A stretch of 64,000 nt of DNA from Eledone cirrhosa (lineage: Eukaryota), in assembly GCA_964016885.1 (NCBI GenBank), contig OZ024744.1:102424001-102488000 (forward strand), written 5' to 3'. The notes beneath the pieces were generated by a model. It saw nothing but the letters and a program-made list of their open reading frames with translations, did no database searches and was not told the DNA's origin. Position numbers and translations under genes: made by a program. Positions within the stretch are counted from its first letter, which is position 1. Each line of letters begins with the position of its first letter. Of the stretch, positions 1 to 42,890 are shown piece by piece.

Positions 1-3000
1 TGTGTCACCAGATATATAAGGTGTGACACTATAGAACAGTTCTATAGTAGGATGGTGTGTCACCAGATATAAAAGGTGAGACACTATAGAACAGGTCTAT
101 AGTAGGATGGTGTGTCACCAGATATATCAGGTGTGACACTATATAACAGTTCTATAGTAGGATGGTGTGTCACCAGATATAACAGGTGTGACACAATAGA
201 ACAGGTCTATAGTAGGATGGTGTGTCACCAGATATATCAGGTGTGACACTATAGAACAGTTCTATAGTAGGATGGTGTGTCACTAGATATATCAGGTGTG
301 ACACTACAGAACAGTTCTATAGTAGAATGGTGTGTCACCAGATATAAAAGGTGTGACACTATAGAACAGTTCTATAGTAGGATGGTGTGTCACCAGATAT
401 ATCAGTTATGACACTATAGAACAGTTCTATAGTAGTATGGTGTGTCACCAGATATATCAGAGGTGACACTATAGAACTGTTTTATAGTAGGATGGTGTGT
501 CAGCAGATATATCAGAGGTGACACTATAGAACAGTTCTATAGTAGGATGGTGTGTCACCAGATATATCAGAGGTGACACTATAGAACAGTTCTATAGTAG
601 GATGGTGTGTCACCAGATATATCAGAGGTGACACTGTAGAAGAGTTCTATAGTAGGATGGTGTGTCACCAGATATATCAGGTGTGACACTATAGAACAAT
701 TCAATAGTAGGATGGTGTGTCACCATATATATCTGGTGTGACACTATAGAACAGTTCTATAGTAGGATGGTGTGTCACCAGATATATCAGGTGTGACACT
801 ATAGAACAGTTCTATAGTTGGATGGTGTGTCACCATATATATCAGAGGTGACACTATAGAACAGTTCTATAGTAGGATGGTGTGTCACCAGATATATCAC
901 GTGTGACACTACAGAACAGATCTATAGTAGGATGGTGTGTCACCAGATATATCAGGGATGACTTATTAGAACAGTTCTGTAGTAGGATGGTGTGTCACCA
1001 GATATATCAGGTGTGACACTATAGAACAGTACTATAGTAGGATGGTGTGTCACCTGATAGATCAAGTGTGACACTATAGAACAGTTCTATAGTAGGATTG
1101 TGTGTCACCAAATATATCAGAGGTGACACTATAGAAGAGTTCTATAGTAGGATGGTGTGTCACCAGATATATCAGAGGTGACACTGTAGAAGAGTTCTAT
1201 AGTAGGATGGTGTGTCACCAGATATATCAGGTGTGACACTATAGAACAGTTCTATAGTAGGATGGTGTGTCACCAGATATATCACGTGTGACACTACAGA
1301 ACAGATCTATAGTAGGATGGTGTGTCACCAGATATATAAGGTGTGACACTATAGAACAGTTCTATATTAGTCTGGTGTGTCACCAGATATATCAGGGATG
1401 ACACTATAGCACAGTTCTATAGTAGGATGGTGTGTCACCTGATAGATCAAGTGTGACACTATAGAACAGTTCTATAGTAGGATTGTGTGTCAACAGATAT
1501 ATCAGGTGTGACACTATAGAACAGTTCTATAGTAGGATGGTGTGTCACCAGATATATCAGAGGTGACACTATAGAACAGTTCTATAGTAGGATGGTGTGT
1601 CACCAGATGTATCAGAGGTGACACTATAGAACAGTTCTATATTAGGATGGTGTGTCCCAAGATATATCAGATGTGATACAATAGAACAGTTCTATAGTAG
1701 GATGGGTTGTCACCAGATATATCAGGTGACACTACAGAACAGTTCTATAGTAGGATGGTGTGTCACCAGATATAATACTATAGAATAGTTCTATCCTAGG
1801 TTGGTGTGTCACCAGATATATCACAGATGACACTATAGTACAGTTCTATAGTAGTATGGTGTGTCACCAGATATATCACAGATGACACTATAGAACAGTT
1901 CTATTGTAGGATGGTGTGTCACCAGATATATCAGGTGTGACACTATAGAACAGTTCTATAGTATGTTGGTGTGTCACCAGATTTATAAGGTGTGACACTA
2001 TAGAACAGTTCTATACTAGGATGGTGTGTAACCAGATATATCAGGTGTTACACTATAGAACAGTTCTATAGTAGGATGGTGTGTCACCAGATATATCAGG
2101 TGTGACACTATAGAACAGTTCTATAGTAGGATGGTGTGTCACCAGATATATCAGGTGTGACTCTATAGAACAGTTCTATAGTAGGATGGTGTGTCACCAG
2201 ATATATAAGTGGTGACACTGTAGAACAGTTCTATAGTAGGATGGTGTGTCACCAGATATATCACAGATGACACTATAGAACAGTTCTATAGTAGGATGGT
2301 GTGTCACCATATATATCAGGTGTGACACTATAGAACAGTTCTATAGAAGTATGGTGTGTCCCAAGATATATCAGATGTGATACTATAGAACAGTTCTATA
2401 GTAGGATGGTGTGTCACCAGATATATCAGGTGTGACACTATAGAACAGTTCTATAGTAGGATGGTGTGTCACCAGATATATCAGGTGTGACTCTATAGAA
2501 CAGTTCTATTGTAGGATGGTGTGTCACCAGATATATCAGGTGTGACACTATAGAACAGTTCTATAGTATGTTGGTGTGTCACCAGATATATCAGGTGTGA
2601 CACTATAGAACAGTTCTATACTAGGATGGTGTGTCACCAGATATATCAGGTGTCACACTATAGAACAGTTCTATAGTAGGATGCTGTGTCACCATATATA
2701 TCAGAGGTGACACTATAGAACAGTTCTATAGTAGGATGGTGTGTCACCAGATATATCAGGTGTGACATATTAAAACAGTTCTATAGTAGGATCGTGTGAC
2801 ACCAGATATATAAGTGGTGACACTATAGAACAGTACTATAGTAGGATGGTGTGTCACCATATATATTGGTGTGACACTATAGAACAGTTCTAAAGTAGAA
2901 TGGTGTGTCACCAGATATATGAGAGATGACACTATAGAACTGTTCTATAGAAGGATGGTGTGTCACCAGATATATCAGAGCTGAGACTATAGAACAGTTC

Positions 3001-6000
3001 TATAGTAGGATGGTGTGTCTCCAGATATATCAGAGGTGACACTATAGAACAGTTCTATAGTAGGATGGTGTGTCACCAGATATAACAAGTATGACACTAT
3101 AGAACAGTTCTATAGTAGAATGATGTGTCAACAGATATATCAGGTGTGACACTATAGAACAGTTCTATAGTAGGATGGTGTGTCACCAGATATAAAAGGT
3201 GAGACACTATAGAACAGGTCTATAGTAGGATGGTGTGTCACCAGATATATCAGGTGTGACACTATATAACAGTTCTATAGTAGGATGGTGTGTCACCAGA
3301 TATAACAGGTGTGACACAATAGAACAGTTCTATAGTAGGATGGTGTGTCACCAGATATATCAGGTGTGACACTATAGAACAGTTCTATAGTAGGATGGTG
3401 TGTCACCAGATATATCAAGTGTGACACTACAGAACAGTTCTATTGTAGAATGGTGTGTCACCAGATATAAAAGGTGTGACACTATAGAACAGTTCTATAG
3501 TAGGATGGTGTGTCACCAGATATATCAGTTATGACACTATAGAACAGTTCTATAGTAGTATGGTGTGTCACCAGATATATCAGAGGTGACACTATAGAAC
3601 TGTTTTATAGTAGGATGGTGTGTCAGCAGATATATCAGAGGTGACACTATAGAACAGTTCTATAGTAGGATGGTGTGTCACCAGATATATCAGAGGTGAC
3701 ACTGTAGAAGAGTTCTATAGTAGGATGGTGTGTCACCAGATATATAAGGTGTGACAATCTAGAACAGTTCTATAGTAGGATGGTGTGTCACCATATATAT
3801 CAAGTGTGACACTATAGAACAGTTCTATAGTAGGATGGTGTGTCACTAGATATATCAGGTGTGACACTATAGAACAGTTCTATAGTAGAATGGTGTGTCA
3901 CCAGATATATCAGGTGTGACACTATAGAACAGTTCTATAGTAGGATTGTGTGTCACCTGATAGATCAAGTATGACACTATAGAACAGTTCTATAGTAGGA
4001 TTGTGTGTCAACAGATATATCAGTTGTGACACTATAGAACAGTTCTATAGTAGGATGGTGTATCACCAGATATATCAGAGGTGACACTATAGAACAGTTC
4101 TATAGTAGGATGGTGTGTCACCAGATATATCTGGTGTGACACTATAGAACAGTTCTATAGAAGTATGGTGTGTCCCAAGATATATCAGATGTGATACTAT
4201 AGAACAGTTCTATAGTAGGATGGGTTGTCACCAGATATATCAGGTGACACTACAGAACAGTTCTATAGTAGGATGGTGTGTCACCAGATATATCAGATGT
4301 TATACTATAGAATAGTTCTATCCTAGGTTGGTGTGTCACCAGATATATCACAGATGACACTATAGTACAGTTTTATAGTAGTATGGTGTGTCACCAGATA
4401 TATCACAGATGACACTATAGAACAGTTCTATTGTAGGATGGTGTGTCACCAGATATATCAGGTGTGACACTATAGAACAGTTCTATAGTATGTTGGTGTG
4501 TCACCAGATATATCAGGTGTGACACTATAGAACAGTTCTATAGTAGGATGGTGTGTAACCAGATATATCAGGTGTGACACTATAGAACAGTTCTATAGTA
4601 GGATGGTGTGTCACCAGATATATCAGGTGTGACTCTATAGAACAGTTCTATAGTAGGATGGTGTGTCACCAGATATATAAGTGGTGACACTGTAGAACAG
4701 TTCTATAGTAGGATGGTGTGTCACCAGATATATACAATGTGACACTATAGAACAGTTCTATAGTACGATGGTGTGTCACCAGATATATCAGGGGTGACAC
4801 TATAGAACAGTTCTATAGTAGGATGGTGTGTCACCAGATATATTGGGGGCGACACTAGAGAACAGTTCTATAGTAGGATGGTGTGTCACCAGATATATGA
4901 GAGGTGATACTGTAGAAGAGTTCTATAGTAGTATGGTGTGTCACCAGATATATCAGAGGTGACACTATAGAACAGTTCTATAGTTGATGGTGTGTCACCA
5001 GATATATCAGGTGTAACACTATAGAACAGTTCTACAGTAGGATGCTGTGTCACCATATATATCAGAGGTGACACTATAGAACAGTTCTATAGTAGGATGG
5101 TGTGTCACCAGATATATCAGGTGTGACATATTAAAACAGTTCTATAGTAGGATGGTGTGACACCAGATATATAAGTGGTGACACTATAGAACAGTACTAT
5201 AGTAGGATGGTGTGTCACCATATATATTGGGGTGACACTATAGAACAGTTCTATAGTAGAATGGTGTGTCACCAGATATATGAGAGATGACACTATAGAA
5301 CTGTTCTATAGTAGGATGGTGTGTCACCAGATATATCAGAGCTGAGACTATAGAACAGTTCTATAGTAGGATGGTGTGTCTCCAGATATATCAGAGGTGA
5401 CACTATAGAACAGTTCTATAGTAGGATGGTGTGTCACCAGATATAACAAGTATGACACTATAGAACAGTTCTATAGTAGAATGATGTGTCAACAGATATA
5501 TCAGGTGTGACACTATAGAACAGTTCTATAGTAGGATGGTGTGTCACCAGATATAAAAGGTGAGACACTATAGAACAGGTCTATAGTAGGATGGTGTGTC
5601 ACCAGATATATAAGGTGTGACACTATAGAACAGTTCTATAGTAGGATGGTGTGTCACCAGATATAAAAGGTGAGACACTATAGAACAGGTCTATAGTAGG
5701 ATGGTGTGTCACCAGATATATCAAGTGTGACACTATAGAACAGTTCTATAGTAGGATGGTGTGTCAACAGATATATCAGTTGTGACACTATAGAACAGTT
5801 CTATAGTAGGATGGTGTGTCACCAGATATATCAGAGGTGACACTATAGAACAGTTCTATAGTAGGATGGTGTGTCACCAGATATATCTGGTGTGACACTA
5901 TAGAACAGTTCTATAGAAGTATGGTGTGTCCCAAGATATATCAGATGTGATACTATAGAACAGTTCTATAGTAGGATGGGTTGTCACCAGATATATCAGG

Positions 6001-7466
6001 TGACACTACAGAACAATTCTATAGTAGGATGGTGTGTCACCAGATATATCAGATGTGATACTATAGAATAGTTCTATCCTAGGTTGGTGTGTCACCAGAT
6101 ATATCACACATGACACTATAGTACAGTTCTATAGTAGTATGGTGTGTCACCAGATATATCACAGATGACACTATAGAACAGTTCTATTGTAGGATGGTGT
6201 GTCACCAGATATATCAGGTGTGACACTATAGAACAGTTCTATAGTATGTTGGTGTGTCACCAGATATATCAGGTGTGACACTATAGAACAGTTCTATAGT
6301 AGGATGGTGTGTCACCAGATATAAAAGGTGAGACACTATAGAACAGGTCTATAGTAGGATGGTGTGTCACCAGATATATAAGGTGTGACACTATAGCACA
6401 GTTCTATAGTAGGATGGTGTGTCACCAGATATAAAAGGTGAGACACTATAGAACAGTTCTATAGTAGGATGGTGTGTCACCAGATATAAAAGGTGAGACA
6501 CTATAGAACAGGTCTATAGTAGGATGGTGTGTCACCAGATATATCAGGTGTGACACTATATAACAGTTCTATAGTAGGATGGTGTGTCACCAGATATAAC
6601 AGGTGTGACACAATAGAACAGGTCTATAGTAGGATGGTGAGTCACCAGATATATCAGGTGTGACACTATAGAACAGTTCTATAGTAGGATGGGTTGTCAC
6701 CAGATATATCAGGTGACACTACAGAACAATTCTATAGTAGGATGGTGTGTCACCAGATATATCAGATGTGATACTATAGAATAGTTCTATCCTAGGTTGG
6801 TGTGTCACCAGATATATCACACATGACACTATAGTACAGTTCTATAGTAGTATGGTGTGTCACCAGATATATCACAGATGACACTATAGAACAGTTCTAT
6901 TGTAGGATGGTGTGTCACCAGATATATCAGGTGTGACACTATAGAACAATTCTATAGTATGTTGGTGTGTCACCAGATATATCAGGTGTGACACTATAGA
7001 ACAGTTCTATAGTAGGATGGTGTGTAACCAGATATATCAGGTGTTACACTATAGAACAGTTCTATAGTAGGATGGTGTGTTACCAGATCTATCAGGTGTG
7101 ACACTATAGAACAGTTCTATAGTAGGATGGTGTGTCACCAGATATATCAGGTGTGACTCTATAGAACATTTCTATAGTAGGATGGTGTGTCACCAGATAT
7201 ATAAGTGGTGACACTGTAGAACAGTTCTATAGTAGGATGGTGTGTCACCAGATATATACAATGTGACACTATAGAACAGTTCTATAGTAGGATGGTGTGT
7301 CACCAGATATATCAGAGGTGACACTGTAGAACAGTTCTATAGTAGGATGGTGTGTCACTAGATATATGATAGATGACACTATAGCACAGTTCTATAGTAG
7401 GATGGTGTGTCAGCAGAAATATGAGAGGTGACACCATAGAACAGTTCTATAGTAGGATGGTGTGTC
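1..7466. repeat. 55-bp tandem satellite, about 135 units, runs off the left edge; derived from an RTE LINE ORF
   Basis: Consensus GGATGGTGTGTCACCAGATATATCAGGTGTGACACTATAGAACAGTTCTATAGTA. TGTGTCACCA recurs at 1, 56, 111 and onward. No unique spacers. The right end runs directly into RTE sequence. Confidence 0.98.
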
Positions 7467-8178
7467 TAGTAAATAATAATTACAGCCGTCAGCATCCGTG
7501 TATAATTTCCATCAAGTTTGGATTTTCAGTGTCCAAGCAATGGCACCATATATCAAGACAGATTCTACACTGGCACGGGAGAAGGTTCATTTTAGGTTGT
7601 CTAGATGATCAGATTTCCATATTTTTTCCATCTTAACGCTTTAGCATTCACATTACTCTATATCTACTATTGTATTTTCACAGTAAACACTTTATGTCAC
7701 ATAATTATCTTACATAATATCGAATGTATGAGATTTTGATATTATTTATTTTGAAAACAATAATTTAATATCAGTATGAGTGGCTAATTATGGCTGGTTT
7801 GAACAGAAAGAGGTAAGAGATTTCTGGCCGGATACAGCCAGTTTAAATGCGAAAGCGTTAATTGTGGTCCTTGAATTAGTATTCTGATCTTCATATCGTT
7901 TTCAGTTGAATTGATTTCACTTCCAAGATATGTAAAGTTCTCAACAGATTTGATAGAATCTCCAGCGAGTGTTTCAATAGAGCTTCTCTTATTGAAGCTA
8001 ATGATGCGTTCACACAGTCCAATGTCAAGATGAGAAAGGATTGTGCATCAGCTACCACAGCTAGATCATCTGCGTAAGTGACATCAGTCAATTTCTTCCC
8101 AGGATGACGATTCGATAACCTTGGAGACAAGGTAAATCCCAAGTCATAATGTTTATCAAAAGATGTTCATAGGACATT
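7467..8178 (-). mobile_element. Decayed RTE-clade LINE fragment (RT C-terminal half), copy 1 of the satellite host
   Basis: Minus-strand translation gives GFTLSPRLSNRHPGKKLTDVTYADDLAVV, KSVENFTYLGSEI, VESVLIYGAIAWTL and LDGNYTRML. Near-identical to 16595-16938. Confidence 0.85.
7633..7861. mobile_element. TTAA-targeting (piggyBac-type) MITE inserted in the RTE
   Basis: TTAA-CGCTTTAGCATT ... AATGCGAAAGCG-TTAA gives terminal inverted repeats with a TTAA duplication. Related copies at about 51160-51378, 53560-53752 and 10645-10795. Confidence 0.75.
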
Positions 8179-10642
8179 TTCTTCTTATCATGTCCACAAG
8201 GCTGTCAGCTACAAAGCTTGGCTAGATGTAGTTCTGCCTCAACTGAACACATTACTGTCTTTTCTCATTAAACTCTGCCAAGTCCAATACTGTTCCAGCA
8301 GGGGGAATGTCAGGAGGTCCTGTGTAGTCTGTAGTTTGATGCCATAGTCACACACAACGTCCCCATCCTTTAGATATCCCCATTTTGCCAGATTGGATTT
8401 TGCACGTCCAACACCAGATCTTAGTCTGTTTAGGCAGTTCCACACTGCATAGTTTGTATCTGCTCCAGGGAGCAGTGCTTCACTCGCCTTTAGCTCCATT
8501 GTTATTACAGATGGGAGGTTGTTAAGTTTTTCTTCCCAGCGAGTGACTCTTTCACTACTTTTACTTGATGTTTCAAGGGGTGTGACGCTCTTTAGGAAAC
8601 TTTTCCTGGATTTAAGGCTGCTTTTGGCTGGCATATGGCTGAAGAGAGGATGCTTTTGATCTGTAGTGTGTTGTTGACACTCTTTCTTGCTTGCTGCACT
8701 TTGTTGTAGCTCTGGTGGGGTTTGCCTGCCAGGATATACAGGCGGTCCATAGGTGTAGATATCAGGCAGCCTGTGATTAGGCGGCAACTAACATAGAAAG
8801 TTGGATCTAGCTTCTGGACATGGTCAGCTCACTCCCATACTGGGCATGGATACTCGACAGCTGAGAAGCAGAGAGCTAGTGCAGTTGTCTTCAGAGTCTG
8901 TGGGTTTGCACCCCAGGTTGTGCTAGTGAACTTGTGGATGATGTTGTTCCTTGCATTCACTTTGCACTTGGTCTTCTCAATGTGGATCTTAAAAGAGAGA
9001 CCCCTGTCCAGGGTTACACTGGATGCTCACAGTGTTCAAGGGGGGGTGGGGGTGTTCCTGATTAGTTGACCTTCAGTTGGTGCTTGGCTTCACGGTTTCA
9101 TGGGTGGAAAGCCACATATCTGCATCTTGGATGGATTTGCACCCAGATGATTCTCTTCATAATAAGGTGTTAGCTCTGGAAGAGCTAACACCTTATAATG
9201 AAGGTGGGAGGCCATTCTTGAGTCTTCAAGAATGGCCTCCCACAGGATCTGCTTTCCTTCTCTCCAAGATCAATAAAGAAGTGTCTGTTTTCAAGTATGT
9301 TTTCAATCAACTCCATCAGACAGGTGTCTCTTGTGGTCTCCAGGATCTTTCTAAGGAGATGTCTGTAGTTGATTGTGTCATAGGCAGCTGAGAGGTCAAC
9401 AAATACCACCCTGGTTACCATCCCTTCCTTGATGTAGTGGGTGAGGTTGAGTACTTGGCTAGTTGTCCACTTGCTAGGGTGGAAGCCTGCTTGTTCAGGG
9501 ATGAGGTGTTCGTCCATTCTGTTGAGGACCAGGCATTCAAAGAGCTTGTAAGTGTGACTCAAAAGTGAGATTAGTCTAAATTTCTTAGGTTTGAGGGTAG
9601 AGATTCCTGCTTCCAACTCTTCTATGATAGAAGCAGTGCCCGCAGTGTATTTCTTGCGGTTTAGTTTGATCTTCTTCCGTCTCTTTGCATTCTCTAGTAA
9701 TTGGTTGGCAGTGACTATTGGGTGCTGAGTGGCTGCTTTAGGACTACCATGTAGCTTGTGAATAAGTGTTCATGCTTTCTTGATGTTTTTTTACATGTCC
9801 ATAGACTCAATAAGAGCATTCCAGGTCTTGCTTTGCTCTTGGGCAATGCTTTCCATCACCTTCTTCTTGTCTTAGGCAGTTGTTTCTTCTGAGAAAGGGT
9901 CTGCTTCAAACATGCTGATATAGTTGGCTTAGAGTTCTGTACATTCCTTTGAAAGTCCAGGTACATATATTCAACTCTACAGCCTCGTGGGATATGTTTC
10001 CGAGCAGTTTTCAGCACCAGGTTAGCAAAAAGGTTGTAGTTATTGCTTGTTGGTATTATATGTTTGATCTTCTCTTCCAGCTTGTTGGTGAAACCTTTCT
10101 AGTAGCAGAAGCACCTTTTAAAAGGCACAATGGTCGAAACTACAGCTGCATTGGACGGTGTTGGCTTGATGGAATAGGATCCAGAACAGTCTTTTTACAC
10201 AGTCCAGTGATGTTACTTGTGACCATGGTGAGATCTGGGTTATAGCCACGTTTCCAACGAGCACTGAAAAACGAGTGTCGTAGCTTGGAGTCATGGATAA
10301 GACTCAGTTGATCAATATCCATCCAGTTCTCTACTGCTTCTCCCTCCTTGTTCAGTTCAGGTTAGCCCCACTGGGTACTGTGGCTATTGAAGTCACTGAT
10401 AATGATCTGTGGATTGCTGGGTACTTTGGTGATTGGCTGGGAAAACAAAGTTAACAGGTGGTGGTTTATAGACAGATGTTACTGTTACACTGTTTAGCTC
10501 AACAGATAAGACTTTGATGTCTTGGTAATCTGACATGTTCATTTCTTCTATAGATAAACCTGTTTTTACAAACACAGCACTGCCGTACTGCCGATGGGGT
10601 CGCTCAATGGCCAGGACCATTCCAGATATGGTTGTTTTCACT
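8179..10642 (-). mobile_element. Decayed LINE, probably Vingi/Ingi clade (APE endonuclease + RT), copy 1
   Basis: Minus-strand fragments: ERPHRQYGSAVFVK and [10 protein letters not shown] (EN); FRLISLLSHTYKLFE and FVDLSAAYDTI (RT); TTWGANPQTLKTTALALCFS; LNRLRSGVGRAKSNLAKWG. 3' tail GACATGATAAGAAG. Frameshifted. The clade call is from motif recall. Confidence 0.75.
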
Positions 10643-10644
10643 CC

Positions 10645-10795
10645 CTCTTCTTTCTGTTCAAATTGTCTGTAACTGGCCACTCATACTAATGTTATGGTAT
10701 TGTTCTCAAAATAAATAATATCAAAATCTCATAGATTTGATATTATGTGAGATAATTATGTTTACGAGAAAATACAATAGTATATATAGAGTAGT
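10645..10795. mobile_element. Fragment of the TTAA MITE, split by an RTE insertion; its terminus resumes at about 12536-12561
   Basis: Matches 51205-51355. AGTAATGTAAATGCTAAAGGGTTAA at about 12537-12561 matches the MITE end at about 51354-51378. Confidence 0.65.
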
Positions 10796-15200: not shown

Positions 15201-15799
15201 TTCTCCTCAGCAAACTTATCCATTGTAGACCACCATAGCTTTCCTTAGTCCAAATTCACCCACACATACATATATATATCACCATTGGTTTTACATTGAC
15301 TTTCCTATACTGGCATGGGTTGGACACAACTTTTTAAGACAATGTTTTCCTGATGGATGTCCTTCATGATACCAACTCTTTTAGACGCTCCTTATGGTAT
15401 GCAGGAATACAATGTCCCTATACTAAACTGTATACACACACAACACAAAGTGAAAAGCTGAAAATAGTGATACCATATTTTTATAGGCTGGCTACAATAT
15501 AAGAATCTACTGAAGAGAGAGATATGGTGAAAATATATGTAGAAGGTTTCAGGTGTTGAAAAGTACATTATCACCAGTATTTGATAAGGTACTGTAACAT
15601 TTGATGATTGATTTATTGATCTGGGTCCAATAGGATATTTTCTGTAATAGACTGCTATCTCATCCCACAGGGATAGCTTTCTCCTATTTTCTTAATGCCA
15701 TCATTAAGGTGTTTTATGAAAAGAAAAGGTGGTGGTTTGAGTCTAACTGCAGATTGAGGAATAAACTAAAATGTGAGATGGAGGATGTTATATATATTG

Positions 15800-16938
15800 T
15801 GTCATCATCTAGTCGAGCTTGCTTGGATATTCATGAGCCTAGTTGTGCATCACGATCAAGCATAAGTGTTGGGAGGTCATTAAAGGAGCATCCTATGTCT
15901 CTATATAGTTAGTCAATGTAAGTTAAAGCCGTTCGGCCAAACTTCCTCTGACTGCGGTTAGGTGATCAAAGCATAACATCACTAACAAGGTCTTGCTTTG
16001 ATCACCAGCAGTGTCCTGCAAATTGGATCCTTCATTCCCGGAATATTGCAGATATATCAGGGATGGGATTATAGAACAGTTCTTTAGTAGGATGGTGTGT
16101 CACCAGATATATCAGGTGTGACACTATAGAACAGTACTATATTAGGATGGTGTCACCAGATATATCAGGGATGGGGCTATAGAACAGTTCTTTAGTAGGA
16201 TGGTGTGTCACCAGATATATCAGGTGTGACACTATAGAACAGTTCTTTAGTAGGATGGTGTGTCACCAGATATATCAGGGATGGGATTATAGAACAGTTC
16301 TTTAGTAGGATGGTGTGTCACCAGATATATCAGAGGTGACACTATAGAACAGTTCTATATTAGGATGGTGTGTCACCAGATATATCAGGGATGGGGCTAT
16401 AGAACAGTTCTTTAGTAGGATGGTGTGTCACCAGATATATCACAGATAAGACTATAGAGCAGTTCTATAGTAGAATGGTGTGTCACCAGATATATCACAG
16501 ATAGGACTATAGAGCAGTTCTATAGTAGAATGGTGTGTCACCAGATATATCAGAGGTGACACTATAGAACAGTTCTATAGTAGGATGGTGTGTCTATGAC
16601 ATAATAATTACAGCCGTCAGCATCCGTGTATAATTTCCATCAAGTTTGGATTCTCAGTGTCCAAGCAATGGCACCATATATCAAGACAGATTCTACAGTG
16701 GCACGGAAGGTGCGTTTTAGGTTGTCTAGATCAGATATTGAAGCCAATGATGCGTTCACAGAGTCCAACGTCATTTGCAGCTTTCTCAAGATGAGAAAGG
16801 ATTGTGCATCAGCTACCACAGCTAGATCATCTGCGTAAGTGACACAAGTCAATTTCTTCCCAGGGTGACGATTGGATAACCTTGGAGACAAGGTAAATCC
16901 CAAGTCATAATGTTTATCAAAAGATGTTCTTAGGACAT
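15800..16938 (-). mobile_element. RTE LINE 3' half (copy 2) containing the short 55-bp array
   Basis: Minus strand: YADDL, RATVESVLIYGAIAWTL, then THHPTKELFYNPIPDISAIFRE*RIQFAGHCW*SKQDLVSDVML*SPNRSQRKFGRTALTYID, ending in a GATGATGAC tail at about 15800. Confidence 0.88.
16050..16594. repeat. 10-unit array of the same 55-bp monomer, inside the RTE ORF
   Basis: GATATATC recurs at about 16051, 16106, 16159, 16214 and onward to 16544. A mix of GGGATGGGATT..TTCTTTAG (ancestral) and GTGTGACACT..TTCTATAG (derived) units. Confidence 0.95.
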
Positions 16939-18064
16939 TTTCTTCTTATCATGTCCACAAGGCTGTCAGCTACAAAGCTTGGCTAGATGTAGTTCTGCCT
17001 CAACTGAACACATTACTGTCTTTTCTCATTAAACTCTGCCAAGTCCAATACTGTTCCAGCAGGGGGAATGTCAGGAGGTCCTGTGTAGTTTGTAGTTTGA
17101 TGCCATAGAGTTCTGTACATTCCTTTGAAAGTCCAGGTATATATTCAACTCTACAGCCTCGTGGGATATGTTTCCAAGCAGTTTTCAGCACGAGGTTAGC
17201 AAAGAGGTTGTAGTTATTGCTTGTTGGTATTGGATTGGGAGTATCGGTAGAAGGTCGGATGCCATGCTTTGCAGCATAGAGTTACGCCCCTTTATGGTCT
17301 GAGTTCAAATCCCGCCGAGGTTAACTTTGCCTTTCATCCTTAAGGGGTCGATAAAATAAAGTACCAGTAATGTACTGAGATAATCATTGGTCTTGTGCCA
17401 AAAGTAGAAACAATTATGTTTGATCTTCTCTTCCAGCTCATTGGTGAAACCTTTCTAGTAGCAGAAGCACCTTTTAAAAGGCACGATGGTTGGAACTGAA
17501 GCTACATTGGACGGTGTTGGCTTGATGGAATAGGATCCAGAACAGTCTTTTACACAGTCCAGTGATGTTACTTGTGACCATGGTGAGATCTAGGTTATAG
17601 CCACGTTTCCAACGACCACTGAAAAACGAGTGTCGTAGCTTGGAGTCATGGATAAGACTCAGTTGATCAATATCCATCCAGTTCTCTACTGCTTCTCCAT
17701 CCTTGTTCAGTTCAGGTTAGCCCCACTGGGTAGTGTGGCTATTGAAGTCACTGATAATGATCTGTGGTTTGCTGGGTACTTTGGTGATTGGCTGGGAAAA
17801 CAAAGTCTACAAGTGATGGTTTATAGACAGATGTTACTGTTACACTGTTTAGCTCAACAGATAAGACTTTGATGTCATGATCAGCTGACATATCCATTTC
17901 TTCTATAGATAAGCCTGTTTTTACAAACACAGCACTGCCGTACTGCCGATGGGGTCGCTCAATGGCCAGGACCATTTCAGATATGGCAGGATGGTTGTTT
18001 TCACTTCCTATGTGTTTGTCAATCTCATCAATACTCCCAGGGCCACTCCTATCTTGACCCCCAA
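16939..18064 (-). mobile_element. Vingi-like LINE copy 2, both termini present, ~1.6-kb internal deletion
   Basis: Near-identical to 8179-8347 plus 9930-10642. Flanked by the TSD AGGACAT (16932-16938 and 18065-18071). Removing it restores the RTE frame QGDTLAPILFVITLDYVLRTSFDKHYDLGFTL. Confidence 0.8.
17230..17415 (+). mobile_element. tRNA-derived SINE inserted in Vingi copy 2; related minus-strand copy at about 48440-48595
   Basis: B-box-like GAGTTCAAATCC, then GAGGTTAACTTTGCCTTTCATCC..GGGGTCGATAAAATAAAGTACCAGT. Absent at the equivalent site (about 10055) in copy 1. Confidence 0.75.
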
Positions 18065-38139: not shown

Positions 38140-38782
38140 GTAGCAATAAAACGCTGATATGTCATTGTAGCAATAAGAGTTGATATTGTAGCTATAACAG
38201 TCATTATAGCTATAACAGTTATTGTAGCTACAACAGTTGATATGTCATTGTAGTTATAACAGTTGATATAACAGTTATTGAAGCTATAACAGTTGATATA
38301 ACAGTCATTGTAGCAATAACAGTTGATAGAACAGTCATTGTAGCAATAACAGTTGATATGTCATTTTAGCAATAAAAGTTGATATAACAGTCATTGTAGA
38401 ATAACAGTTGAATTGTCATTATAGCTATAACAGTTGATATAACAGTCAGTCATTGTAGCAATAACAGTTGATAGAACAGTCATTATAGCTATAACAGTTG
38501 ATATGTTATTTTAACAATAACAGTTGATATAACAGTCATTGTAGCTATAACAGTTGATATAACAGTCATTGTAGCAATAACAGTTGATAGAACAGTCATT
38601 GTAGCAATAACAGTTGATATGTCATTGTAGCAATAACAGTTGATATAACAGTCATTGTAGCAATAACAGTTGATATGTCATTTTAGCAATAACAGTTGAT
38701 AGAACAGTCATTGTAGTAATAACAGTTGATAGAACAGTCATTATAGCTATAACAGTTGATAGAACAGTCATTGTAGTAATGA
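38140..38782. repeat. ~24-30-bp minisatellite (AACAGTTGATA.AACAGTCATTGTAGCAAT), left part
   Basis: Direct inspection; it continues at 42694-42890 after a LINE insertion. Confidence 0.92.
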
Positions 38783-41700
38783 CACATTTCACTCCCAACC
38801 CATCTCAGATACGGTTCATTATTGTGTTTTCTCTCAAGTAATGTAATCTATTTGTTTCCTTCTCCAACCATGCCTAATCCATACATTCCTCGCACAGATC
38901 TCCACCTCTCTTCCAACTCATATTTTTCCTTCTTTTCTAAAATCACTTCGCCCTTTGGCCATATATTTCTCCTATCTCACTCCTGAACTAAAAATATTTC
39001 GTTTTGGCAATATGCCCATGGCCCTCCCTCCCACATGAACCAACTCAATCCATACTACTCCTAGGGCAGTTGTTTTCCATCTGATGTTTGTTGCTGTATG
39101 GCATATGGATTACTCTGAGCATTACTAATTGACGAATATGAACCCACCAAGTCACCCCTCCTATGTTCACACACTCCCCCTACCAAGTTCCCATCATCTA
39201 CCTCTTGCTTTCCTATCAAACTCCATAACTTCAGAGTTGGCACCACGAAAGGTAAATCTGGAGAGATTGTAGAGATACTTGAATGAATGAAAATCGATGT
39301 GTGCTATGTACAAGAGACAAGATGGAGAGGTATGTACAAGAGACAAGATGGAGAGGTATGTCTGCTAGATTCCTCATAGGCAAAAAAATGATGCTATAAA
39401 TTTTCTGGGTGGGAAATGACAACGGGCTGGGTGGAATAGGGATTTTGGTAGCAGAAAGGTGGGTAAACAAGGTTATTGCTGTAAATAGAGTAAATGACGA
39501 AATAATTAAACTTAGACTTGTACTAAATAGAACCATGACAATTATATCTGCTTACGCTCCTCAATTTGGGCTCCCAGACATACTAAAAGACAGGTTCTAT
39601 AAGACCCTAATAAACACTACCTCCCAAATAAACGATAGCGACTTCCTACTCGTTACAGGTGAATTTAACGGGCGTGTTGTGATCTACGGGGTTTTTCAAG
39701 CAAGGTGTTACAAATGAGGAAGGCTTCAGACTACTGGAATTCTGTGGCGCAAACGACCTATCTATCTGTAATACAAACTTCAGAAAATGAGACAACCACC
39801 TAATCACATATATATCAGGTGACCACGCCAACCAAATTGATTTCATTCTTACTAGAAGATGAGACAGAGTGACTGTTAGGAACACAAAGTTACTCCCCAG
39901 TGAAGAATGCACCTCCTAACATAACTTAGTCAGAGCTATAAGAACTCGACAACAGTAGCTTACCTGGAGTAGACGAGTATGGAAGTTAAAAGACCCATCA
40001 TCCAGTAACAAATTTATAAGTATGTTGACCGACACCTTCAACAGCAAGGAAGAGAAAATAGAGACATATGGTATAGAGGAGCAGTGGGAGTTCCTGAAAG
40101 ATAACCTACTGAAGGTGACTGATGAAATCTGTGGTTTGATTAGGTCTCTAGGGAGACAGAGTGACTTGGTGGTGAAATAGTAAAGTAGATGAGACAATTA
40201 AGGCCAAAAGACAGGCTTGGAAAGATTGGCGTAATGAGGGGTAGCAGAGAAGTTTACCAGAAGATAGGTGTAATGGGGGTAACAGAGAAGTTTACCAGAA
40301 GGCTAGGAGAGAAGATAGGTGTAATGGGGGTAACAGAGAAGTTTACCAGAAGGCTAGGAGAGAAGATAGGTGTAATGGGGGTAACAGAAGTTTACCAGAA
40401 GGCTAGGAGAGAAGATAGGTGTAATGGGGGTAACAGAGAAGTTTACCAGAAGGCTAGGAGAGAAGATAGGTGTAATGGGGGTAACAGAGAAGTTTACCAA
40501 AAGGCTAGGAGAGAAGATAGGCGACAAGTTTACCTCGCTAGAAGGGAAGCAGAAAAAAAATTTAAGCACTTTTTTCAGCATGAGAATGAAAGACGTGAGG
40601 TGTTCAGGATTTTACGGCAGTGTGTCAGGGAAAATTGTAATGTCAGTGGGGAGAAGTGTGCCTGAAATGATTTTGGCGAACTTTCCCTCACTGATGCTGA
40701 AAAGAAGGTAGTATGGAAGTGTCACGGGGAGAAGAAAATTTGTCACATGTTGACCTAACAGAGGGACCGGCTGTACAAGTTAACAGTAGTATCGTAATAA
40801 GGCAATTAAGGATAAGAAGTCAAGCAGAGCAGCTGGTCCCTCAGGGATAGTTGCTGAGATGCTGAAAGCATCAGGTATGATGGTTCATACCATAGTCTCC
40901 CACATTGTAAACCAAGTTATACAGAAATGGAGTCATACCCAATGACTGGTGTAGCAGCATGATCATAAATTGCTACGAAGGGAAAGGTGATGCTCTAGAT
41001 AGAGAAAATTATCGAGGCATTAAGTTGGTTGACCAGGTTATGAAGGTCTCTGAAAGAATCATAGCTCAGCTGATTAGAGAACGAGTTAACCCAAATAAGA
41101 TGCAATTTTGATTTGTTCTATGTAAAAGTACCACAGATGCCTTCTTCCTTGTAAGACAACTGCAGAAAAAATACCTAGTTAAGAGTAAACCCCTCTACTT
41201 GGCTTTTGTCAACCTGGAGAAAGCTTTTGACAAGAGTACCCTTGTTCCGTTATCTGGTGGGCTCTTAGAAAACTAGGAGTTGATGAATGGCTTGTGAGGG
41301 CAGTTCAAGCAATGTATAGAAGAACAGTCAACAAAGTTAGAATTAACAATGACTATAGCGAAAAATTTAGCATGCAGGTTGGTGTCCATCAAGGCTCTGT
41401 TCTTAGCCCTCTCCTGTTTATTATTATTTTGCAGGCAAAACGGAGGAGTTTAAGACTGGCTGCCCATGGGAACTTCAGTACGCTGATGACTTAACCTTTA
41501 TTTCCAAATCTATTGCTGAATTAGAGATGAAATTCCAAACCCGGAAGCACAGCCTAGAATCTAAAGGTTTTAAAGTCAACTTGGCAAAGACTAAAGTCCT
41601 AGAAGGGAAAACAGGGCCCTGCTCACTGTGCAGAAATGGAGTAGGTAGAAATTCCATTCTATATCCGAAATGCAAGCAACGGGTTCACAAGAGATGTGGG

Positions 41701-42693: not shown

Positions 42694-42890
42694 AGTTATT
42701 GTAGCAATAATACAGCTGATAACAGTCATTGTAGCAATAACAGTTATGGTAGCTATAACAGTTATTGTAGCAATAATACAGCTGATAACAGTTATTGTAG
42801 CAATAACAGTTGATATAACAGTTATTGTAGTTATAACAGTCATTGTAGCAATAGCAGTTTATATAACAGTCATTGTAGCTAACATAGTTA
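42694..42890. repeat. Minisatellite, right part
   Basis: Same ATAACAGT(T/C)ATTGTAGCAAT units as 38140-38782. Confidence 0.88.

Follow-up and report, generated by a model that had tools for sequence, protein, structure and literature searches.

A palindromic minisatellite unit inside a decayed LINE: template-switch correction as a probable account of its origin, and its relation to array expansion

The window analysed is a stretch of 64,000 nucleotides (G000:C28:102424001-102488000) from a 3.0 Gb assembly, and it carries two arrays of one 55-bp unit, which Tandem Repeats Finder places at 1-7466 (136 copies) and 16049-16594 (10 copies). Unit positions are numbered throughout such that position 1 corresponds to window position 16049. 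The short array (16049..16594, plus strand) has 10 units of 55 bp, except that those at 16104 and 16542 are 53 bp long. The LINE origin given in the earlier note on this DNA is real, and the repeat lies in register inside the C-terminal region of the reverse transcriptase (RT) of a decayed minus-strand LINE. The 3′ end of this element (15789..16048, minus strand) includes the end of the RT ORF and a short trinucleotide tail near 15800. The upstream part of the same decayed copy (16595..17108, minus strand) is internally deleted but still shows, near 16830, the YADD motif that belongs to the RT domain. The 55-bp unit is a slice of the LINE RT region, and its arrays constitute a transposon-derived minisatellite.

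The large array (1..7466, plus strand) is represented in the window by its right end. It extends about 39 kb upstream of the window and totals 870 units, including a 1.8 kb piece located past a 2.5 kb interruption. Its left LINE flank is missing, and its right LINE flank (7467..8347, minus strand) is interrupted near 7607-7856. The right flanks of the large and short arrays (7467..8347 versus 16601-17108) are 94-95% identical, indicating that the two arrays are local paralogues and not independent events. The regions 7467-10646 and 16595-18009 form a local duplication with about 94% identity, in which the left duplicate carries extra sequence at ~7607-7856 and ~8348-9929, the latter resembling another reverse-transcriptase element. 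Within 1-7466, the units are arranged in higher-order blocks, and identical runs of variants reappear, as with the units near 64 and 3187, at a distance of about 3.1 kb. Positions 38185-38784 and 42694-42878 of the window are occupied by another minisatellite family, whose periods of 18, 30, 56 and 86 bp are related. Two further loci on the same contig, 67-75 kb upstream of the window (L069 467-3213 and L070 5480-6964), hold related 26-30-bp arrays with short internal palindromes, and flank searches produced no match between these arrays and the host LINE.

Following the earlier note, we provisionally label the host LINE a member of the RTE clade, with which its non-LTR RT domain and its brief 3′ terminus agree. 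In RTE elements, very little sequence follows the ORF before a tail of short repeats, and the host LINE exhibits both features. When four LINE pieces were compared with Pfam, one exceeded the cut-off (the better-preserved copy L009, matching RVT_1 with an E value of 1.3e-14) and the window piece gave no match. Searches of the same genome revealed at least about 45 LINE copies that span the unit site, and most places recovered by another query had already been found. The unit was rooted on 32 LINE rows outside the seven arrays then known, a set that includes one locus later seen to be a two-unit array (C21) and four truncated or deleted copies. The commonest letters among these 32 rows are 15A (30 rows), 18G (28), 19G (25), 21C (26), 22C (22), 28G (20), 36T (30) and 47C (21), while 47G is found in none. 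In addition, 20A is present in 24 of the rows, and the transitions 22T and 28A occur in eight and five, respectively. The LINE ancestor of the unit is not palindromic. A natural unit from an array on contig C8 has the commonest LINE letter at all 53 LINE-derived positions, and the commonest C8 unit differs from these letters only at position 13 and at the junction.

Several other LINE copies are altered at or near the unit site. One single-copy LINE (L025; G000:C1, near 164468090) has 10G, 15G, 18A and 19T on an otherwise ancestral unit, for which a short conversion patch, a collapsed array and an independent event are candidate readings. Another (L017; G000:C4, near 282881100) ends, to the right of the unit, in a perfect inverted repeat with 14-bp arms and a 4-base loop that is built from its own flank, and thus represents an independent fold-back event beside the unit site. 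Four more (L026, L096, L029 and L022) have small deletions or templated insertions within the 55 bp of the unit site, among them duplications of 22 and 32 bp.

The derived unit differs from the natural C8 unit at seven positions (15, 18, 19, 22, 28, 36 and 47), and six of these seven changes repair a mismatch. Those at 22, 28 and 36 remove every mismatch, three in all, from a 10-bp stem whose centre is position 30, and those at 15, 18 and 19 likewise clear the three mismatches of an 8-bp stem formed with positions 49-55 and 1. The longest perfect stems are 4+4 bp in the natural C8 unit versus 10+8 bp in the derived unit. By single-strand folding prediction, reverting any of the six pairing changes costs 2.6-5.8 kcal/mol per dimer, whereas reverting position 47 costs none. 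The sole perfect 21-bp inverted repeat of the short array is located at 16561..16581 (unit positions 20-40, with 10-bp arms and a 1-base loop), and the second stem, which crosses the unit junction, is located at 16535..16562 (8-bp arms at 16535-16542 and 16555-16562), with the two structures overlapping by 2 bases. The earlier note had placed the second stem around the GATATATC palindrome, which turns out to be two bases out of register with it. The outer stem is 7 bp long in the GGTGTG variant that had been called dominant, versus 8 bp in the AG or GG variants. The perfect 21-mer is present in 353 of the 839 55-mers of the large array, and both stems are perfect in 222.

This gain of pairing is greater than random substitution would be expected to yield. 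Seven changes were drawn at random 100,000 times with an equal proportion of transitions, and no draw produced 10+8 bp stems. When 22T and 28A are set aside as common transitions, the last four changes alone were equalled by 1 of 60,000 random sets. A folding energy as low as that of the derived unit was reached by 16 of 4,000 random sets and by 20 of 2,187 sets confined to the same sites. The proposal that derived substitutions raise self-complementarity beyond chance is therefore upheld when the unit is rooted on the LINE. Moreover, the two observations that the proposal could not have survived were sought directly, and we found a LINE family that is not already palindromic in the 32 rows and changes that are strongly biased toward pairing in the random-set tests.

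The combination of non-palindromic LINE copies with pairing-biased fixed changes makes template-switch correction a good explanation for the origin of the palindromic unit, and it is the best account suggested by the sequences. The adjacent change at 18-19 sits on a stem of 7-8 bp, whereas in the 10-bp stem each change stands alone and both arms are affected. A multi-base change of the published kind (arm of at least 7 bp, spacer of at most 70) is thus present at one stem only. Because the 10-bp stem is altered on both arms, at least two correcting events would be needed. In 62 of 839 large-array units, positions 18 and 19 are derived with 15 ancestral, and these units might reflect two steps or recombinants. 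The GGGATGACAC variant at 1395..1404 (plus strand), which had been offered as an intermediate, is of this type and has five exact copies on the same contig. A second proposed intermediate, GGGATGGGGCT, does not qualify because it has a private 20G, unlike the LINE, and thereby loses the pairing of 20 with 40. A 38-39 AG>CC double change is found in four window units (1767, 4285, 6041 and 6754), all of which also alter position 44. When it occurs with the usual 44A, upstream of the window, this change forms a new 10-bp palindrome and breaks the main stem. It is a candidate later template switch and is 1 of 40 variant types.

Both unit types described previously exist, as does the perfect 21-bp inverted repeat. 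The statement that correction is visible within one array was too strong, however, given the composition of the short array. At positions 15, 18 and 19, five of its 10 units are ancestral (LINE-like), four are derived and one is mixed, and the perfect 21-mer is present only in the last unit. The LINE-like and derived types alternate in units 1-7, where a period of 110 outscores 55, which suggests that the two types were amplified together as dimers. The array includes one class with 28A and 36T and another with 28G and 36A, and these, together with the LINE and fully derived states, complete all four 28/36 combinations. This pattern implies recombination or reversion, and no single order of changes can be read from it. 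Some part-way types survive in the short array but not in the large one. It is an interleaved mosaic, not an ordered series or gradient. Furthermore, the LINE-like unit itself, although real, is not the ancestor because it already has 22T, 28A and 47G as well as a private 21T. The change written as GATT>CACT is partly mis-polarised for the same reason, as 21C is the letter in 26 of 32 LINE rows.

Exact copies of the 21-mer number 931 genome-wide and are confined to three regions (C28 with 367, C5 with 551 and C26 with 13), while a reversed control gave 0. A second pattern census was likewise fully placed (447+599), and a junction pattern yielded 935 matches, of which 933 lie in known loci, one is a chance match and one was not located. 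Pattern matches on C1, C3 and C1460 are outside any LINE and were rejected as chance. A short pattern for the right edge of the arrays was also dropped because its counts were at chance level (90 versus 77 for the control). The arrays of derived type are the large (870 units) and short (10 units) arrays of C28, one of 739 units on C5, one of 28 units on C26 that has a 34-bp period, and one of two units on C21. The ancestral-type arrays, which are non-palindromic, comprise 163 units on C8 and about 33, 15 and 5 units at three related loci on C12. If the two C28 arrays are counted as one, arrays at the same LINE site are found in eight places.

The 39 loci that were found with queries around the site, not all of which are independent, contain 58 tandem-repeat rows with a period of at least 18. 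All 21 rows that match the LINE fall on the 55-bp site, and none was found elsewhere on the LINE across 16,400 other aligned bases. There are two junction types, CA in the C12 arrays and AC in all others, and all AC-junction arrays begin at the same base. The AC junction consists of the same seven bases as the LINE flank about 45 bp to the left (window 16002-16008), and in C12 a fold-back of 5 bp becomes complete at the CA junction. On this post hoc comparison, either feature could have caused the common start of the duplications.

The derived arrays also differ in period, as 509 of 738 unit spacings on C5 are 34 bp. Positions 12-21 and 46-55 of the derived unit form a near-direct repeat, with 9 of 10 bases matching in the GGTGTG variant and 7 of 10 in the GG variant. 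Since GTGWCAC is nearly its own reverse complement, perfecting its stem would also have created this near-direct repeat. The left-hand version of the repeat is present at the junction in 9% of the C5 34-mers. These features suggest that the 34-bp unit likely arose from a 21-bp deletion between the near-direct repeat copies.

The derived unit resides in LINE copies that are otherwise no more alike than the family at large. The LINE flanks of C28 and C5 are 81% identical over 240 columns, which corresponds to the family background, and the left flank alone is 75% identical. The commonest letters of these two arrays are the same at all 34 core columns, and their 55-mers differ at two columns. This identity was initially taken as proof of transfer, but that argument is weakened because the commonest C8 unit, too, has hardly changed. 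Diversity is highest in the C28 array (4.2% versus 1.0-1.9% elsewhere). At C5, C21 and C26 the array junctions are deleted or scrambled, with a loss of about 157 bp at C5 and about 49 bp at C21, and microhomologies of about 3 bases were read by eye at these junctions. The first C26 unit keeps the ancestral 15A and contains two microhomology jumps, and the C21 edge keeps 47C. We favour ectopic transfer from the C28 lineage as the mode of spread, at somewhat better than an even chance.

Alternatively, one LINE copy with a small mixed array might have been retrotransposed in trans or duplicated to C28, C5, C26 and C21, after which the commonest unit would have stayed unchanged and later breakage would have made the edges ragged. 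The flank trees (37 of 39 rows in the first and 36 in the second, with short or duplicate rows left out) are star-like and do not reject a single clade of palindromic loci (p-AU 0.18-0.35 and 0.20-0.32 in the two tree runs). The shared start base of the AC-junction arrays and the C8 array, whose commonest letters have changed little, are also in keeping with a single source. Other observations weigh against it. The flanks share no more derived letters than the background, the C26 and C21 array edges still show ancestral letters of the resident copies, and the 55-bp duplication shifts the reading frame. None of the C5, C26 and C21 arrays has clean LINE sequence on both sides, unlike the arrays of C8, C12a and C12c and the short array. 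We therefore consider a single source to be possible but the less probable route. Two sister relations from the trees were abandoned, one between the window LINE and C8 (82/70) that vanished with more columns, and another between C5 and C26 (97/92 in the first tree) that is not claimed after the larger tree.

It had also been proposed that cruciform-forming potential and amplification feed back on each other. On this reading, a hairpin or cruciform would stall replication or break the DNA, and palindromic units would be preferentially amplified, at least in a young mixed array. Some features of the arrays fit such a process. No LINE-like units are left in the large array, where the derived type has taken over entirely, as 0 of 839 units are ancestral at all three of 15, 18 and 19 and 0 of 839 have 36T. 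The two biggest arrays, with 870 and 739 units, are palindromic, the non-palindromic arrays reach at most 163, and the palindromic lineage is present on four contigs. Drive would also explain why the fixed changes are mostly pairing ones despite the present rarity of correction. Among present-day units, the arms of the C5 55-mers are marginally better conserved (p 0.017-0.055, a contrast inflated by a polymorphism at unpaired position 11), and single variants that make stems are slightly commoner in C28 (p 0.07).

Most tests on present-day units gave null results, with the provision that units are related by block duplication and thus provide fewer independent points than their number in all tests. 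In C28, divergence from the commonest letter is 0.045 in the arms versus 0.051 at unpaired positions (p 0.75), and the ratio for distinct units is 0.96 with a 95% range of 0.66-1.41. Variant frequency in C28 is unrelated to energy change (rho 0.000), as is haplotype copy number to energy when distance is removed (rho -0.03, p 0.56). The relation is also absent in C5 55-mers, C5 34-mers and C8, and therefore the predicted dependence of copy number on folding energy is seen in none of four unit sets. Compensatory pairs in C28 number 4 versus 3.9 expected among 452 mutated arm sites, and adjacent multi-base variants that make stems number 9 versus 9.8 expected among 40 types. A possible sign of spacer inversion, in which the loop base changes from A to T in 22 of 23 variants, was rejected because position 41, another A site, is equally biased (17 of 17). 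A compensatory count for GATATATC (26 versus 4.8) was discarded because it was contaminated by mis-phased units, and the within-unit compensatory count for the second stem relied on that phasing as well. Hence, neither excess compensatory pairs nor spacer inversion, as would be expected of recurrent ongoing correction, was found.

Other observations indicate that the double hairpin is not needed for expansion. The 34-bp unit has no second stem, and GATATATC is broken at position 10 in the C5 55-mers. The earlier claim that double-hairpin units were the ones that expanded is not supported, given the 163-unit non-palindromic array of C8 and the single-hairpin 34-mers, which dominate C5 and C26. 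The perfect 21-mer is missing from 58% of C28 units, an arm-breaking variant at position 34 has reached 15% of the C5 34-mers, and the short array amplified LINE-like and derived units together. The palindromic arrays look like one lineage, which is also the most diverged, and their size may reflect age. Template switching is the best account of the origin, whereas feedback between cruciforms and amplification is not supported by these data, and we judge it unlikely.

The account that we prefer, with slightly better than even confidence, combines rare template switches in a founder with ordinary expansion of a dead-LINE minisatellite, without measurable help from hairpins, and with ectopic spread. 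First, a 55-bp piece of the RT region of a dead LINE was tandemly duplicated. The 22T and 28A changes were possibly plain transitions in the resident copy. One or two switches to the inverted arm likely supplied the double change at 18-19 together with 15G, and the source of 36A would be a further, separate switch or a point mutation. The palindromic unit of this founder lineage then likely expanded by unequal exchange and slippage, and a 21-bp deletion between its repeat copies likely generated the 34-bp unit. Finally, the derived unit likely reached the LINE copies of C5, C26 and C21 by ectopic, microhomology-assisted repair. The switches are deduced from the sequences, and any cruciform would be a predicted structure. 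Some considerations weigh against this account. Although present-day units give no sign of correction, almost every fixed change is one. If correction is as rare as the large array suggests, two correcting events in one founder lineage require either luck, at roughly 1% by a rough estimate, or early drive. Old arrays can also stay alike without transfer, as demonstrated by C8, which remains near the commonest LINE letters.

A more active version of these events would portray a self-perfecting, invasive minisatellite. A fold-back-prone LINE site would spawn 55-bp duplications repeatedly, switching would perfect the dyads in a single lineage, and the palindromic unit would out-replicate its ancestors, colonise paralogous LINEs of other chromosomes and change its period from 55 to 34 bp. 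We consider this whole sequence unlikely, at about one chance in five.

Less probable still is an origin that involved no switching to an inverted arm, but only point mutations and misalignment to the direct near-repeat 34 bases away, with the unit having been noticed for its palindromic look. The 22T and 28A transitions occur in LINE rows and 22T segregates in C8 (69 of 162 units), direct copying of 46-55 would give 14T, 15G and 19C, and the signal of ongoing switching is absent. However, the two templates make different predictions at position 18. Among 421 distinct units, the A predicted by the inverted template is present in 409, whereas the T predicted by direct copying is present in one. 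The C5 55-mers keep G at 13-14, leaving only the three inverted-template changes relative to the LINE in this region, and the null probabilities are about 1e-5. We regard such an origin as improbable. Host selection for the 21-bp dyad as a binding site for a dimeric protein or as a chromatin signal would accord with its occurrence at three loci and with published proposals that satellite dyads act as binding or positioning signals (PMC8122249), but it is very improbable given that the arms decay as fast as the spacer and that only 931 exact copies exist in three places.

Dyads are frequent in satellites, but without an ancestor to compare, as is usually the case, it is hard to tell whether host selection, drive or mutation bias produced them. 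For the present unit, a dead LINE supplies the root, and non-palindromic arrays at the same site serve as natural controls in one genome. The data consequently separate the origin of the dyads, which was non-random and template-like, from their upkeep, which is apparently neutral. The matched natural 55-bp units would also be suitable for a direct expansion assay.

Each ingredient and mechanism in this system is already known, but they are unusually well rooted in this case. Homogenisation of inverted-repeat arms by template switching, or quasi-palindrome correction, has been described by Abraham and Hazkani-Covo (2021, PMC8604942) and in further literature (PMC5453318, PMC8794818). As in PMC8604942, an imperfect ancestral inverted repeat was made perfect to an extent that exceeds a simulated null, and an adjacent double change involves an arm of at least 7 bp and a spacer under 70. 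Unlike the cases described there, the corrected sequence is a tandem unit whose second stem depends on a junction made by duplication, the correction gave rise as well to a near-direct repeat by which the period likely changed from 55 to 34 bp, and repeated events or spacer inversion are not detected. The literature covered, with few subscription papers, contained no report in which a satellite monomer had its correction rooted on the transposon ancestor.

Short inverted repeats that are predicted to fold have been noted in satellites, and their role is unsettled in two reports (PMC8122249, PMC8822648), the second of which reads satellite dyads as a stochastic outcome. In contrast to the dyads treated there, the ancestor of this unit is known, the gain is polarised and non-random, and the upkeep looks neutral. 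A review (PMC9659126) lists PROsat, Pvc 20 and chicken HinfI as satellites derived from LINE ORF2. The present unit resembles these in being a slice of LINE coding sequence, here in register within its parent. It differs from those examples because, in a family of at least about 45 copies, the arrays occur at one 55-bp site in eight places and at no other site examined, and because ancestral-type and palindromic-type arrays coexist in one genome. The spread of the unit recalls Rsp-like satellites of Drosophila, which have moved into 1.688 clusters and for which gene conversion, MMBIR-like repair or circular DNA is proposed by Sproul et al. (2020, PMC7403614). Both systems have near-identical repeats at distant loci with junction microhomology and deletions, whereas the landing pads in this genome would be dispersed single LINE copies that are homologous to the unit and lie on different contigs, and the transfer is deduced. 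What appears to be new is a LINE site with arrays at eight places, together with a palindromic unit that resides in LINE copies with a flank divergence of about 19%, which is likely the result of ectopic transfer.
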